The notes: a model not told the origin generated them from the letters alone. Shown: positions 45,180-55,323, numbered from the stretch's first letter. The stretch: 64,000 bases of DNA from a virus (IMGVR_UViG_3300029305_006500); one strand, 5' to 3'. Translations and numbers: made by a program.

Positions 45180-46758
45180 AGGAGAATTAAATATATGGAA
45201 ATTAATACTGAGTACATTGTAGGTTATTGTATGTCTACTATCAATAGTAAGTTAGTCAATACAGATTTTTCGAAGGACGATATAGTTACAGTAGAGATCC
45301 CATTTTTCACTTATTGGTATGTAGATTCTTCAAATGAGTCTCAGGACAATAGAATTATCATTAATGATGATGTTCGAAGATCTGCGTATGACAACTTTGT
45401 AAATACAAAACAAACTATGCTTGATAAATCTCTTATATATCATTTTAATCATACGTTTCAGTCTGATTTTCAGATTGTAAATACAGAGCTGATACTAGTT
45501 ACGCTAAATCCTGAAAATAAATCTAGACTACTTCCAACATATAGAGTAACTATACGTAGAGTATCTAGTACAGGGGGTGTTATTAATGCAAGGTGTTGAA
45601 ATTCTAACTACAACTACGAAGTATGAAACAGAACCGATATGGTGGGTATGGTTGATATTTGGTTGTATTATCGCAGCTGTGTGGCTAATAACTAGTCTCT
45701 GTTTCTATTTTAGCTCTTATGATTCTGGATTTGTTTCAGTTCTTATTGGGCTTGAAATAAGCTGTTTAGCTACACTGTTACTTATTATTCCATTCGGAGC
45801 AATGGCCACAAAAACCTTAGATACTGTTGATTATTACAAGCATGAAGTAATAATTGATGAAACAGTTAATATGACAGAATTTTTAGATAAGTATGAAATA
45901 GTTGATGAGCGTGGAAAGATACTTACAGTTATTGAAGATGTAAATTGAAAGGACAGTATTTAAATGAAAGTATTTCTTATTATTCTTTGTATTGTGTTAA
46001 TTATTGTACCAATTATCGTATACGGTGGAGCAATAGTTAATGCTATTCAGTTTGAAGCAAATTGTACTAGTTATTTGAAGATGGCTGCAGATGCAAATGA
46101 TGTAAAGATTGCTAACAAGCATCTAACTTCGGCTGTTGAATACCTAGAAAAAAATAATTTGATAAGCGGAAACACAAAAGTATTTATTTATAAACCTACA
46201 TGTGATATTGGATTGTGGTATGAAAATTTGAAGTCTGCTCAAGAACAGTTGAATGAAGTTTGTGTAAAAGAAGATTTAACTGAACTAGAAGAGTCTAATA
46301 TGCTCATGAAGTTGCGAGAGACTTTGCTCGATGGAGAAGGAACTGTTACGCATCCTTCAATGATTTCATTTTATCCTAACCATGTAGTATGGTTTTGGGC
46401 TATGCTGCTTATTTGGGCATTGTGGATAGGAGCAGGCTTTGCTGGTTGGGGTGCATCAGAGTGTGATTATTATTAAACTATGAAGAAAAGAAAATATGTC
46501 TATAATGCAAGTTTTAGTAAAATAAAAGATAATATTGAGGATACTACTTATGGTCTTTGCCCGGCACCTATGTCCGCGCAAGAAGCTTTATTCATTCTTA
46601 CAGATTATCTTCTAGGAGATACTTGGTATCATACCTTATCTTGTAGCCAAGAACAGGAAAACGCAATTATAGTTGAGCAGATTTTAGATAAGCACTCAAA
46701 ACAGTGGCAGAAAGATTGGAAAAATTATAAAAAAAGGGACTTAAATTCTTAAGTCCCT

Positions 46759-46773
46759 ATTGTATTATATAAT
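46759..46773 (+). promoter_or_regulatory. ATTGTATTATATAAT promoter motif driving the ncRNA locus
   Basis: Same motif class as 8911, 19687, 22878, 55968 etc.; preceded by hairpin AGGGACTTAA/TTAAGTCCCT. Confidence 0.65.
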
Positions 46774-46878
46774 GTGAGTGCCATGAAGCTTAGCTTGGTC
46801 GGATGATTGATTATGGGTCATACCGGGTGCCAATAAGATTCAGGAGCAGTGGTAAATGGAATGCGATAAACAGCTCAC
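46774..46878 (+). ncRNA. Structured RNA repeat unit 1
   Basis: P1 GTGAG/CTCAC; TGCCAT-GAAGC...GCA-GTGGTA-AATGGAATGCGATAAACAG. Confidence 0.8.
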
Positions 46879-46880
46879 TA

Positions 46881-46975
46881 GTAGGTGCCACGAAGCTTGG
46901 TGATTGTATGCTGAAATGGGTACACCCTCCCAAGATTACGGAGTTGTGGTAAATGGAATGAGATGAACAGCCTAC
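46881..46975 (+). ncRNA. Structured RNA repeat unit 2
   Basis: P1 GTAGG/CCTAC; TGCCAC-GAAGC...GTT-GTGGTA-AATGGAATGAGATGAACAG. Confidence 0.8.
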
Positions 46976-47059
46976 ACTACGAACAATACGCCAACCGGCT
47001 GAGACTCGTAGAAAAATAAACTCAGAAGGGAAGAGAGCAACGAGCTTTGACATTTGCCG

Positions 47060-47161
47060 AGACTTAGGTGCCACGAAGCGCTGGATATGGAGATCATGAG
47101 TGAAGTATTTGGTGAGGTTGTAAGAAGCTGTGGTAATGGAAAGAGTTAAACAGCCTGGTCT
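47060..47161 (+). ncRNA. Structured RNA repeat unit 3
   Basis: P1 AGACTTAGG/CCTGGTCT; TGCCAC-GAAGC...GCT-GTGGTA-ATGGAAAGAGTTAAACAG. Confidence 0.75.
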
Positions 47162-47229
47162 GATTTGGTGTTGAACGTGGGAAGTTCCCTGTAGTCTTCG
47201 CTTGGACTGCCAAAACAAGAGACTTACTA

Positions 47230-47333
47230 TCAAAGAGTGCTACGAAGCCGATTGAGCGTTAGGCAAGCCTGTATCGGAAAGCGGTGTCCCTGAAGCAGCA
47301 GTAGTAAATGGAGTGAGATGAACAGCTCTTTGA
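47230..47333 (+). ncRNA. Structured RNA repeat unit 4
   Basis: P1 TCAAAGAG/CTCTTTGA; compensatory TGCTAC/GTAGTA; AATGGAGTGAGATGAACAG. Confidence 0.8.
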
Positions 47334-47382
47334 AATCTTTTATTTAGGAAGGAGACCTTATTTATGACGAGTACGAAAATTT

Positions 47383-47676
47383 GTGAGGATACTCCACCTG
47401 TTAATGTGAAGTACTGACTAAGACGTTAGTTAGTACTTGTGGGCACAGGATCAGCATCGCTGAGGAAAACGAGACATACTGTGAGTTGAGGTTAGGTGGG
47501 AGGCCTCTGAGAGTTTTACTTGTTTTGTAACTGTTAAAACAAGTTGGCAGCACATACTATTGAGGGAGTACGCCAATTGCGAAGTTATAAAGCTTGAGGT
47601 AAAGAGCAAGAAATAACAAGAGCGGCCTGAGTAAATATCAGGTGTGTTGTGGGTAACGAAATCCCATGTCCTTCAC
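47383..47676 (+). ncRNA. ~300 nt multibranch structured RNA domain of unknown class
   Basis: Long-range closure GTGAGGATA/TGTCCTTCAC and TACTCC/GGAGTA; hairpins at 47409-47438 and 47518-47544, plus GAGGTT/GGCCTC, CCTGA/TCAGG, TGGG/CCCA; no ORF. Confidence 0.6.
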
Positions 47677-47688
47677 TCTATCCGTATT

Positions 47689-47829
47689 AAATTTAATAGT
47701 GCCACGAAGTCTTAGATGACAAGTTATTAGTTAGCTTAGGAGAGGGGCTATGAAGTACAAGTAGCTTAATTATCCTTTTTGTATACACAAGCAGTGGTAA
47801 ATGGAGTTTGAGGAACAGCTATTAAATTT
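47689..47829 (+). ncRNA. Structured RNA repeat unit 5
   Basis: P1 AAATTTAATAG/CTATTAAATTT (11 bp); TGCCAC-GAAGT...GCA-GTGGTA-AATGGAGTTTGAGGAACAG. Confidence 0.8.
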
Positions 47830-47837
47830 TGTTGTAT

Positions 47838-47899
47838 GGGTCATTGCTTCTTGGGTGAGCGAGGGACGCCTTGATGAGTTCAAATCTCATAATGACCCC
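47838..47899 (+). ncRNA. Miniature tRNA-like RNA without an anticodon loop
   Basis: Acceptor GGGTCAT(T)/(A)ATGACCC; D-like arm GCTT...GAGC; GAGG-GACG-CCTT in place of the anticodon arm; T arm ATGAG-TTCAAAT-CTCAT. Confidence 0.7.
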
Positions 47900-47910
47900 T
47901 AATTTTATAT

Positions 47911-48043
47911 CCAAGGCTGGCGGAACGGGCAACACCAATATAAGTCCCGACTCATAGGTCAGTGAGAGGTAGACGCAGGTCGGAGAAGATCGGCTATCAA
48001 TGATCAGGGTAGCGTTCAGGTTCAAATCCTGGGCCTTGGGCCA
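47911..48043 (+). ncRNA. Class II tRNA-like RNA with a ~40 nt D-loop insertion, non-canonical anticodon arm and encoded CCA
   Basis: CCAAGGC/GCCTTGG+G+CCA; TGGCGGAA...GGTAGACGC D arm; variable arm GCTATC/GGTAGC; T arm TCAGG-TTCAAAT-CCTGG. Confidence 0.7.
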
Positions 48044-48067
48044 TTTTTTAGTATAAGGAGATCAATA

Positions 48068-48994
48068 ATGTTAATTGGAATTGACTTTGATGGTGTAATG
48101 AATAATATGGTAGAAACTTGGGTAGCTATGCTGAATGATATGTATGGCTTTTCTGTACAAGTTTCAGATATTAAGTCGTGGGAAATGAAAAAAGCTTTTC
48201 CGAAGTTAACTGACGATGAATTGTTTGCTCCTTTGCACATTCCTGAATTTTGGGATAAAGTTACTGCAAAGCATGAGGCTCCAGAAGTAGTTGCCAAGCT
48301 AATTGCTGATGGGCATAGAGTTTATGTGGTTACAACCACTCATTATAATACTTTGGAACCCAAACTTACTAGATGTTTATTTAAGTATTTTCCTTTTTTA
48401 AGTCATCATAATATTATTATTACTTATAATAAATCTTTAATTAATTGCGATTTGCTTCTAGATGATGCAGAACATAATTTAATTGACTTTAATGGTATAA
48501 GAGTTTTATTTGATGCTACTTACAATAAGGCTGCAACTACTTATGATTATCGAGTAAGTTCTTGGAAGGAATTCTATATTCTCGTATGTGGATTAGAAAG
48601 CCGAGTTAATACACCTCCAACCAGAGTGTATAGATTTTCGGCAGGCCGTGGCCAGGGAAAAACTGCATGGCTTCATCAAATGATTAAAGACTCAGAAGGC
48701 TTTGATTGCTATTTTATAGGATCTATTAATCAGCATAGAGCTTTTTGTAAAAGTTTTATGGAGCGTTTTGGTCAACGATGTAATGTTCAGGCATTAAGTA
48801 ACCTTGAAGATTTAAAGGGCCTAAAGCCTGATGCAAGGATTTTTGTAGACATGCCTTCGCAATTTGCAATTAATTCTGAAATTTTTACGGTATTTAAAGA
48901 GTTATTTTTAGCTAGAAATAACTTAATTTTTGTAGCTGATTTTGAAAACATAAATTGGTATGCTATTCATAGTTTAGACAGAAGGAGAGGCTAA
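48068..48994 (+). CDS. 5'(3')-deoxyribonucleotidase (NT5C-type HAD) fused to a P-loop-like C-terminal domain
   Basis: IGIDFDGV, NKSLINCDLLLDD..HN, F.A.YN...RV.SW; then AGRGQGKT. Confidence 0.8.
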   Translation: MLIGIDFDGVMNNMVETWVAMLNDMYGFSVQVSDIKSWEMKKAFPKLTDDELFAPLHIPEFWDKVTAKHEAPEVVAKLIADGHRVYVVTTTHYNTLEPKLTRCLFKYFPFLSHHNIIITYNKSLINCDLLLDDAEHNLIDFNGIRVLFDATYNKAATTYDYRVSSWKEFYILVCGLESRVNTPPTRVYRFSAGRGQGKTAWLHQMIKDSEGFDCYFIGSINQHRAFCKSFMERFGQRCNVQALSNLEDLKGLKPDARIFVDMPSQFAINSEIFTVFKELFLARNNLIFVADFENINWYAIHSLDRRRG

Positions 48995-54117: not shown

Positions 54118-55323
54118 ATGACAAACATAAAGGTAGTAATGGGGGCATCTTTTGGAGATGAAGGTAAAGGTTTGATGTCAGATTATTTTTGTCATCAAGC
54201 AGTTTCTAAAGGAGAGGATTGTGTAGTAGTACTTTCTAATGGTGGTGCTCAGAGAGGACATACTGTAACTCTTGCAGATGGGACTCAACATGTATTCCAT
54301 CATTTTGGGTCAGGTACTTTTACTGGTGCGCGTACTTATTGTATTAGTGACTATATCCTTAACCCCATGACCTTTGTGAAGGAGTATCAAGAACTTGCTC
54401 AGCTTGGATATAGACTAAGCGATATGATCATAGAAAGCCGCTGCCGTTGGTCTACCCCATTTGATATGATTACAAATCAAATTCTTGAAGCCTCTCGTGG
54501 AGATGCAAAGCATGGAAGCTGTGGTATGGGCATTTGGGAGACTTCAGTGCGATATCAACGTTTAAAAAATCAGCCTACATTGGAAGAGTTTGATCTTTGG
54601 CCTAGAGATAAGAAGCTAGAATTTCTGAATGATTGTAGAACTTTTATGATTACAAGACTTGCTGAGGAAGGTGTATCTTATATTCCGGATGAGTGGTATG
54701 AAATTGTACATTCTGAAACTCTGCTCCAGCATTTTATAGATGATGTGCGGTTTATGATAAAGCATACGATACCTGCTTTTTTAGTTCCACTTACAAGCTT
54801 TAAAAATATTGTATTTGAAAATGGACAAGGCTTGTTACTTGACCAAGATCTTACTTTTTATGGAAATAATACTACACCGAGTGCCACAGGTTCTACAAAT
54901 GCTATTAAAACTATTAATAAATACTTTAGTAGGCCTTCTGATGAACTTGCTATAGAAATGTGTTATGTGTCTAGAACTTATATGACTAGACATGGGGTAG
55001 GTCGTTTTGAAACTGAGTGCAAAAAAGAGCTTTTGAATAAGGATATGTTTGATGAGACTAACGTTACCAATCCTTTTCAAGATAATTTACGTTATGGAGA
55101 GCTTATTTTGCCTAATCTTGTTACAAGGGTGTCACAGGATTTTAGTCGTGCCTGTGATCTACTTGTGAATAAAAAACATGCTTCTTTAGTTGCTAATGTA
55201 GCAATGACGCATACAAATGAATATGAAGTAGATTATGCAAGAATTAGAGATAAGCTAATTAGTAATATCTATACTTCTAATACTAGAACAAGAGATTCTG
55301 TAAAGTTATTTACCGAATTTTAA
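54118..55323 (+). CDS. Divergent adenylosuccinate-synthetase-like protein
   Basis: GASFGDEGKG, NGGAQRGHTV, HGSCGMG, FENGQGLLLD, TPS.TG, R.Y.TRHG.G. Confidence 0.85.
   Translation: MTNIKVVMGASFGDEGKGLMSDYFCHQAVSKGEDCVVVLSNGGAQRGHTVTLADGTQHVFHHFGSGTFTGARTYCISDYILNPMTFVKEYQELAQLGYRLSDMIIESRCRWSTPFDMITNQILEASRGDAKHGSCGMGIWETSVRYQRLKNQPTLEEFDLWPRDKKLEFLNDCRTFMITRLAEEGVSYIPDEWYEIVHSETLLQHFIDDVRFMIKHTIPAFLVPLTSFKNIVFENGQGLLLDQDLTFYGNNTTPSATGSTNAIKTINKYFSRPSDELAIEMCYVSRTYMTRHGVGRFETECKKELLNKDMFDETNVTNPFQDNLRYGELILPNLVTRVSQDFSRACDLLVNKKHASLVANVAMTHTNEYEVDYARIRDKLISNIYTSNTRTRDSVKLFTEF

Follow-up and report, generated by a model that had tools for sequence, protein, structure and literature searches.

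A gap between genes in a 64,000-nucleotide (nt) stretch of DNA from the virus IMGVR_UViG_3300029305_006500 (the whole stretch is called the window below) raises the question of what is encoded by five similar units lying between positions 46774 and 47829, each with a conserved core around an insert that differs from unit to unit. They are members of a family of small RNAs, not catalogued before, that large phages from animal guts and rumens carry among their tRNA genes, and we consider it very probable that this is a real family of transcribed and structured RNAs.

All five units are present on the + strand with the positions and layout described in a first-pass annotation made from the sequence alone (Table 1). 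In each, a closing stem of variable sequence (P1) is followed by UGCYAY-GAAG, a variable insert, AGCW-GURGUA, a 19-nt purine-rich block (AAUGGAR...RAACAG, ending in AACAG) and the 3′ strand of P1. The closing-stem pairs quoted in the annotation for each copy all form, that of unit 3 with the help of one bulged C, and the compensatory change described in helix P2 of unit 4 (CUAC/GUAG) is real. The surrounding gap (46753-48067), which had been called free of open reading frames, holds no credible genes, although mechanical open reading frames of 140 amino acids on the - strand and 49 amino acids on the + strand exist. Elsewhere in the window there is no mismatch-free occurrence of the full 11-nt or 13-nt motif, and a covariance model built from relatives matched these five units alone within it (E 1e-10 to 1e-14), the next match having an E value of 0.38. 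A period of three was looked for in the unit lengths and none was seen.

Degenerate pattern scans for the 3′ motif identified many large IMG/VR contigs together with contigs of metagenome-assembled genomes (MAGs) of gut and rumen Clostridia and Bacteroidales. When both the 5′ motif and the closing stem were required, the family comprised 86 distinct full units on 103 viral or MAG loci of large phages, providing many homologues with covariation. A 50-sequence alignment (A2) was used to build a covariance model (R1), which gave 119 and 62 matches over the collected loci with scores of up to 95 bits. The family RNAs are approximately 95-190 nt in length and share a conserved core of approximately 45 nt. 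The source phage genome, a 146.5-kb IMG/VR record estimated to be 63% complete, carries seven copies in total, the sixth and seventh (G000:108790-108927 and 110070-110221) lying within an island of 29 tRNA genes. Another 39 phage genomes with the motif, 84-260 kb in size and in 24 cases 90% complete or better, carry between one and six copies each, usually one. Since most genomes are single-copy and close relatives of the source phage have four to six, the five-unit array represents an expansion in this lineage. Unit 4 has an identical copy in relatives L042, L054 and L055, and the insert of unit 5 has an orthologue with compensatory changes in L021. No cultured phage with the motif was identified, as blastn searches against GenBank phages gave no relevant match and model R1 returned noise (E at least 0.09) on Bacillus phages PBC2 and vB_BcoS-136, Lysinibacillus LC76P1, a Vibrio jumbo phage and T4.

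Pairing of P1 and P2 was observed in 90.8% of alignment cells compared with 74% in shuffles, none of 500 shuffles reaching the observed value, and fell to 25-55% when the partner columns were slid by 1-3 positions. P1 may have any sequence, with up to six pair types per position and a length of 3-15 bp, and is followed by no conserved 3′ tail. P2 is an invariant 6-bp helix that includes an invariant G·U pair; this pair would read C·A on the opposite strand, indicating that the folded molecule is the + strand RNA. At the fourth P2 pair, 26 sequences of the 50-sequence alignment have U-A and 24 have C-G, none being unpaired, and an A-U version is present in L044. Covariation within the one genome had been taken as a sign of selection on RNA structure, a view borne out by the covariation of P1 and P2 across the family.

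The variable arm, P3, starts at the C directly after GAAG. Opposite GAAG is a conserved 3′ strand of 11-13 nt, A(U/A)N(C/A)AG-N-AGC-W, and the resulting asymmetric loop joins P2 to P3. The inserts are 50-170 nt in length and fall into 62 unrelated clusters among the 86 units, and the arm turns over fast between phage lineages. Within clusters, the stems of orthologous inserts change by compensation, and the P3 arm is therefore structured and selected. When antisense targets of the seven source-genome inserts were searched for in their own genome, chance-level 12-17-mers were all that was found (E at least 0.1). A mini-hairpin within the insert of unit 5 (47747-47765, GCUAU-GAAG-U-ACAAG-UAGC) echoes the P2/GAAG/ACAG theme of the core; in the L021 orthologue its loop is kept and its stem covaries (GUUA/UAAC).

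The 19-nt block, previously thought to be an unpaired strand serving as a catalytic or binding surface, instead forms a mini-hairpin (PT, UGGAR-UGNGAU-RAACA) whose pairing is kept in rare variants. Its stem consists of two Watson-Crick pairs and three purine-purine oppositions and is capped by a T-loop-like loop of 6 nt. The variants were obtained from a scan that left the PT block unconstrained and from weaker model matches: U9-A24 becomes C9-G24 in L249 and U·G in L047 and L086, G10-C23 becomes G·U in L216, A12/A21 becomes U-A in L086, and R13/R20 becomes C-G in L248. The R13/R20 opposition is otherwise G/G (53 sequences), A/A (25) or A/G (4), with a mutual information (MI) of 0.68, and its two positions change in concert in five credible groups of orthologous inserts, independently of the state of P2; a sixth group, from a mis-joined unit, was excluded. 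In the loop, U14-(G/U)-N-R-A18-U, three sequences including unit 3 replace U14..A18 by A14..U18, which is the behaviour of T-loop positions 1 and 5. Because the 19-nt block pairs as PT, the core is a three-way junction of P1, P2-P3 and PT, with junction strands of 0, 2 (AA) and 1 (G) nt. The first-pass annotation had also likened tandem UGGAA and UGAGA pentamers to T-loop modules. The likeness holds for the second pentamer (UGNGA), with its U..A to A..U swap, but the first (UGGAR) pairs with RAACA as the 5′ strand of the PT stem, and an interdigitated double T-loop was therefore rejected as unsupported.

Position 3 of the PT loop is A where the second P3 pair is C-G, U-A or U·G, and U where that pair is A-U. 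The association (MI 0.56, bias 0.28, 38 non-redundant units) is too weak for a contact to be claimed and could represent a tertiary contact or shared ancestry alone. Likenesses noted by eye to a kink-turn, sarcin-ricin/loop-E, the hairpin ribozyme and signal recognition particle domain IV were dropped, as defining positions vary or are missing.

No match to the units was obtained with Rfam 15 (4227 models, among them hammerhead, twister, twister-sister, pistol, hatchet, hepatitis delta virus (HDV)-like and hairpin ribozymes, YrlA/Y RNA and RAGATH motifs). At E of 10 or below, the region 46400-48200 gave two chance-level matches only, of 19 and 16 bits, which lie in a spacer or elsewhere outside the units, and at gathering score there was no match in the whole window. 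The units are therefore no known ribozyme, riboswitch, Y RNA or RAGATH motif, and their description as unrecognised stands. ARAGORN detected no tRNA or transfer-messenger RNA (tmRNA) gene in the window and the tRNA model RF00005 gave no match there, the same tools finding 29 tRNAs elsewhere in the genome. A tRNA was further rejected on structure, there being no 7-bp acceptor stem, discriminator or CCA, a P1 of 3-15 bp, and in PT two Watson-Crick pairs and a 6-nt loop rather than a 5-bp T stem and a 7-nt UUCRANY loop. Ro-associated Y RNA or YrlA is contradicted by the lack of a Rfam Y RNA match and by the rarity of the TROVE domain (Ro60/Rsr, PF05731), found in 1 of 40 motif-bearing genomes and absent from the phage's own. 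The annotation's exclusion of a CRISPR (short palindromic repeats that are clustered and regularly interspaced) or TIGR (tandem interspaced guide RNA) array was confirmed: the conserved halves flank a variable part inside a covarying stem, the inserts are 50-170 nt in length and successive units are separated by 2 to 355 nt. Repeats of a type III toxin-antitoxin system (ToxI-like) were rejected given the genes downstream (Table 1) and the presence of most members as single copies in tRNA arrays. Identity with GOLLD was rejected because the GOLLD model (RF02032) matches the source genome downstream of unit 7 without covering it, and because GOLLD co-occurs in 1 of 39 motif-bearing genomes. A literature search found no paper with the motif, string matches being unrelated primers and similar; 8,495 unnamed IMG/VR candidates (PMC10690425) lay outside the comparison.

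The family is closely linked to tRNA genes. Sixty of the 86 distinct units have a tRNA predicted by ARAGORN within 1 kb, and for all 66 units with a tRNA within 3 kb, unit and tRNA share a strand. Some units take up the whole spacer between two tRNAs with linkers of 0-5 nt; in L091 P1 starts 1 nt past an encoded CCA, and in L065 it directly follows the CCA of tRNA-Pro, the unit ending 5 nt before tRNA-Arg. There is no preference in the identity of the neighbouring tRNA. RNA-repair genes (RNA ligase, Thg1-like, polynucleotide kinase) are frequent neighbours of family units. Thg1 was found in 13 of 40 motif-bearing genomes and 8 of 24 near-complete ones and is therefore not an obligate partner, and no recurrent neighbouring protein family was detected, the best cluster occurring at 11 of 101 loci.

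Evidence for transcription of the array was obtained from four animal-gut metatranscriptome runs of two studies, which covered parts of the stretch and were available as assembled contigs, not raw reads. Contigs of one study, carrying 0-9 mismatches, cover 46845-47400 at a word depth of 70-190, whilst in the same comparison the coding flanks (45900-46745 and 47874-48700) have a depth of 0-3.5, which speaks for abundant RNA rather than DNA carry-over. On three refuting conditions named in the first-pass annotation, a strong Rfam match, a lack of covarying homologues and a lack of transcription, the outcome favours the annotated motif. A 91-nt contig corresponds to 46883-46973 (unit 2) with one mismatch, and another (47028-47202) spans unit 3. 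As contigs bridge unit borders, an unprocessed precursor exists. Contig ends were not used as RNA ends, most of them being 30-nt overlaps typical of assembly branch points. The spacer between units 4 and 5 (47334-47688) is 355 nt in length, gene-free and without a Rfam match, and has an RNA-contig depth of 1-9, far below units 1-4.

Table 1. Positions of the five units, their parts and the adjoining features in the window.
Feature	Position	Strand	Details
Unit 1	46774..46878	+	P1 46774-46778/46874-46878; P2 46779-46784/46849-46854; PT hairpin 46857-46872
Unit 1, inner parts	GAAG 46785-46788; P3 + insert + J3/2 46789-46848	+	covariance model 76.9 bits, E 1e-14
Unit 2	46881..46975	+	P1 46881-46885/46971-46975; P2 46886-46891/46946-46951; PT 46954-46969; 57.8-75 bits
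Unit 3	47060..47161	+	P1 47060-47068/47154-47161, C47063 bulged; P2 47069-47074/47130-47135; 63 bits
Unit 3, PT	47137-47152	+	loop AGAGUU (A14..U18 swap); single A, not two, ahead of PT
Unit 4	47230..47333	+	P1 47230-47237/47326-47333; P2 47238-47243/47301-47306, compensatory U-A pair; PT 47309-47324; 76.1 bits
Unit 5	47689..47829	+	P1 47689-47699/47819-47829; P2 47700-47705/47794-47799; 84-nt insert; PT 47802-47817; 72.9 bits
Spacer, units 2-3	46976..47059	+	not a family member; co-transcribed (RNA contig 46966-47057, depth 92); fold z -1.7; no Rfam match
Spacer, units 3-4	47162..47229	+	co-transcribed (RNA contigs 47028-47202, 47191-47323); fold z +0.14
AT-rich -10-like box	46763..46773	+	TATTATATAAT, preceded by TG; ends at first base of unit 1
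Terminator-like hairpin of upstream Tad8-like gene	46735-46758		-10-like box comes after it
Tad8-like gene (Tad8 = type II Thoeris inhibitor)	46480-46752		Pfam PF25189, E 2e-21; directly upstream of array
Genes after array	NT5C/HAD phosphatase 48068-, RNA ligase 48996, Thg1-like 51114, HD 51932		RNA-repair block

The explanation that we favour, with belief and doubt about evenly balanced, is that of a new stable RNA processed along with tRNAs and acting in trans via its invariant junction core. To the family, fold, strand, tRNA linkage and RNA abundance observed above it adds a proposed processing route, an action in trans and a partner. The RNA is made from the tRNA strand; it would usually be part of a polycistronic tRNA transcript, and in this lineage additionally be made as a five-unit array from its own promoter-like box. 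Host nucleases trimming the neighbouring tRNAs would release it, probably setting its ends, and the released molecule would accumulate as a stable RNA. The invariant core most likely forms a compact tertiary module in which the PT loop docks on the GAAG/J3-2 loop, similar to the meeting of T- and D-loops in tRNA. Such a core would probably be the handle by which the RNA is recognised by a conserved component of the host's tRNA or translation machinery, a host factor being proposed because no phage protein travels with it, and P3 would diversify or tune each paralogue.

By context, the closest analogues are the species 1 and 2 RNAs of T4 (rnaC and rnaD), which are likewise small stable RNAs on the tRNA strand of a phage tRNA cluster and abut tRNA-Arg and each other by 1-6 nt. 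However, they show no sequence similarity to the motif, their best R1 match is 9 bits, they lack the P2/PT core and the hypervariable arm, and rnaC has a canonical T arm. GOLLD and ROOL, which are abundant and often located close to tRNA islands, are structured orphan RNAs from phages and prophages for which no protein partner is known (PMC12286853). They resemble the present family in being orphan phage RNAs often beside tRNA islands, but are ornate, multimer-forming RNAs of 400-800 nt with no homology to the motif. A GOLLD RNA (155 bits) is present in the tRNA island of the source genome at G000:110630-111145 (L245:2061-2576). It lies just ahead of tRNA-Glu, with unit 7 approximately 400 nt upstream, and the close relative L050 has the same arrangement.

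Several points weigh against a stable trans-acting RNA. The mature ends, the stability and the partner are elements that we infer, and the RNA evidence consists of assembled contigs from two studies that bridge unit borders. P1, at 3-15 bp, is unlike an acceptor stem that ribonuclease P (RNase P) can measure. Most of the "invariant" positions are partly imposed by the search patterns and the model derived from them, and the evidence for the Watson-Crick pairs of PT consists of single rare variants. Folding energies of individual sequences are no better than those of shuffles (z -1.3 and +0.56), so that support for the structure comes from covariation and not from thermodynamics. The results fit a host-factor handle, catalysis or a purely cis role alike.

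It is possible, though unlikely, that the core acts alone, as a new class of self-cleaving ribozyme or as a tRNA-elbow mimic by which large gut phages engage the host tRNA-processing or translation machinery, with the P3 arms as domains for specificity or cargo that can be exchanged. That the 86 copies contain 62 unrelated types of insert loosely fits the putative scaffold with interchangeable domains that the first-pass annotation offered as one option.

We regard as rather unlikely a cis-acting element of tRNA operons, whose fold would insulate tRNAs from misfolding, block 3′ exonucleases or recruit a nuclease and which would have no function after release. Location on the tRNA strand, tight packing between tRNAs, a P1 in which pairing alone is needed and the U-rich tracts that follow P1 in some copies all agree with such a role, but approximately 45 near-invariant nucleotides across very different phages go far beyond what a spacer or roadblock needs. 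Neither the presence of one copy per array nor the abundance of the RNA, which suggests a stable product, is readily accommodated, and in this phage five units are expressed in a row, uninterrupted by any canonical tRNA, from a promoter-like box of their own.

A new class of small self-cleaving ribozymes punctuating phage tRNA and non-coding RNA transcripts appears distinctly unlikely. Cleavage at, for example, the 5′ edge of P1 would release the 3′ end of whichever tRNA or unit lies upstream, as proposed for theta (HDV-like) ribozymes, which sit next to tRNAs of gut phages and thereby provide a precedent (PMC10879173). These too are small conserved RNA elements directly beside tRNA genes of large gut phages; they differ in having a nested double pseudoknot and an association with suppressor tRNAs, the motif being a plain three-way junction with no preferred tRNA neighbour. 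A highly conserved core between variable closing and peripheral stems would suit a ribozyme, as would the lack of an obligate protein partner and the location of some units 1 nt past an encoded CCA or, in tandem, 2 nt apart. However, no Rfam ribozyme model matches and the junction fits no known ribozyme architecture. With usually one copy among 10-29 tRNAs and no preferred neighbour, the motif is not a general tRNA-processing device, and large P3 domains under structural selection would be needless for cleavage. The RNA contigs spanning whole units and borders are compatible with partial cleavage or with none. To our knowledge, most conserved orphan motifs assayed for self-cleavage have proved negative.

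That the RNA binds or mimics the tRNA elbow we consider improbable. In this case the T-loop module would stack on elbows, as in T-box Stem I, RNase P and the L1 stalk, or would imitate an elbow and occupy the factors that read it. The swap between PT loop positions 1 and 5 above a closing pair and the linkage to tRNA arrays are in line with this idea, as is a topology shared with the tRNA-like domain of tmRNA. As in tRNA and that domain, a stem closes the ends, a helix carries a variable body, a T-arm-like hairpin with a T-loop-like loop precedes the 3′ strand of the closing stem, and the RNA is co-transcribed with tRNAs; the motif differs in lacking an anticodon arm, a 7-bp acceptor, a discriminator and CCA, in its 6-nt rather than 7-nt loop and purine-purine stem, which is unlike a T arm, and in having no ARAGORN or Rfam match. 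The interdigitated double T-loops of the T-box Stem I distal end, the RNase P S-domain and the L1 stalk likewise feature a T-loop-like pentanucleotide with a covarying 1-5 pair in a tRNA-linked RNA, but they comprise two T-loops on separate strands, whereas one T-loop-like element is supported here and caps a hairpin, UGGAR being stem. The association of the second P3 pair with position 3 of the PT loop is also weak.

A sponge that would bind several copies of a protein such as CsrA/RsmA (as in CsrB/RsmZ), proposed in the annotation from the repeated AUGGA sites, is highly improbable despite an AUGGA in each of the five tandem units, as the tandem array is peculiar to this lineage, most phages carrying one copy inside a tRNA array, the single GGA of each unit lies in the PT stem and not in a hairpin loop, and conservation extends far beyond the size of a GGA site.

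Large gut and rumen phages devote conserved tRNA-island sequence to orphan RNAs such as GOLLD, ROOL and T4 species 1 and 2. The motif adds a small and tractable member of approximately 100 nt, whose core is unusually invariant and whose covariation is clear; a minimal construct is defined and there is evidence that expression is high. Its length suits probing, crystallography or cryo-electron microscopy, pull-downs and ribozyme assays. A partner or activity, once found, would show what phages use tRNA arrays for besides codon supply, and if the P3 arm is exchangeable the motif may offer a natural stable RNA scaffold.

Upstream of the array, the AT-rich -10-like box was not scored by a simple sigma-70 scan and its promoter role is therefore putative. 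Across the family, first units often have such a box ahead of them that ends at P1; similar boxes (tattatataat, tgtattatataa, cgtattatata) adjoin P1 of the first units in several relatives. With the Tad8 homologue upstream and the RNA-repair block downstream, the array lies between an anti-defence gene and RNA-repair genes. Two tRNA-like RNAs follow unit 5: a 62-nt mini-tRNA shape at 47838-47899, which has a canonical T arm and an end stem of 8 bp and lacks an anticodon arm, and a 133-nt RNA at 47911-48043 with an acceptor, a T arm and an encoded GCCA. Both were undetected by ARAGORN and Rfam and had no RNA-contig cover. Further downstream, an adenylosuccinate-synthetase homologue (54118-55323) matches a PHROG family named for the PurZ-type enzyme (phrog_1211, E 2e-55), and the genome may thus contain a modified purine.

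Two observations concern other motif-bearing phages. A RAGATH-33 RNA (RF03102, 123.6 bits) is present in the tRNA array of one of them (L074:7215-7340). A 214-kb phage carries a tRNA with the amber-suppressor anticodon CUA (L013:95-169, labelled tRNA-Pyl by ARAGORN), and the Thg1 match of genome G008 has an in-frame TAG, which together hint at stop-codon recoding in some of these phages.

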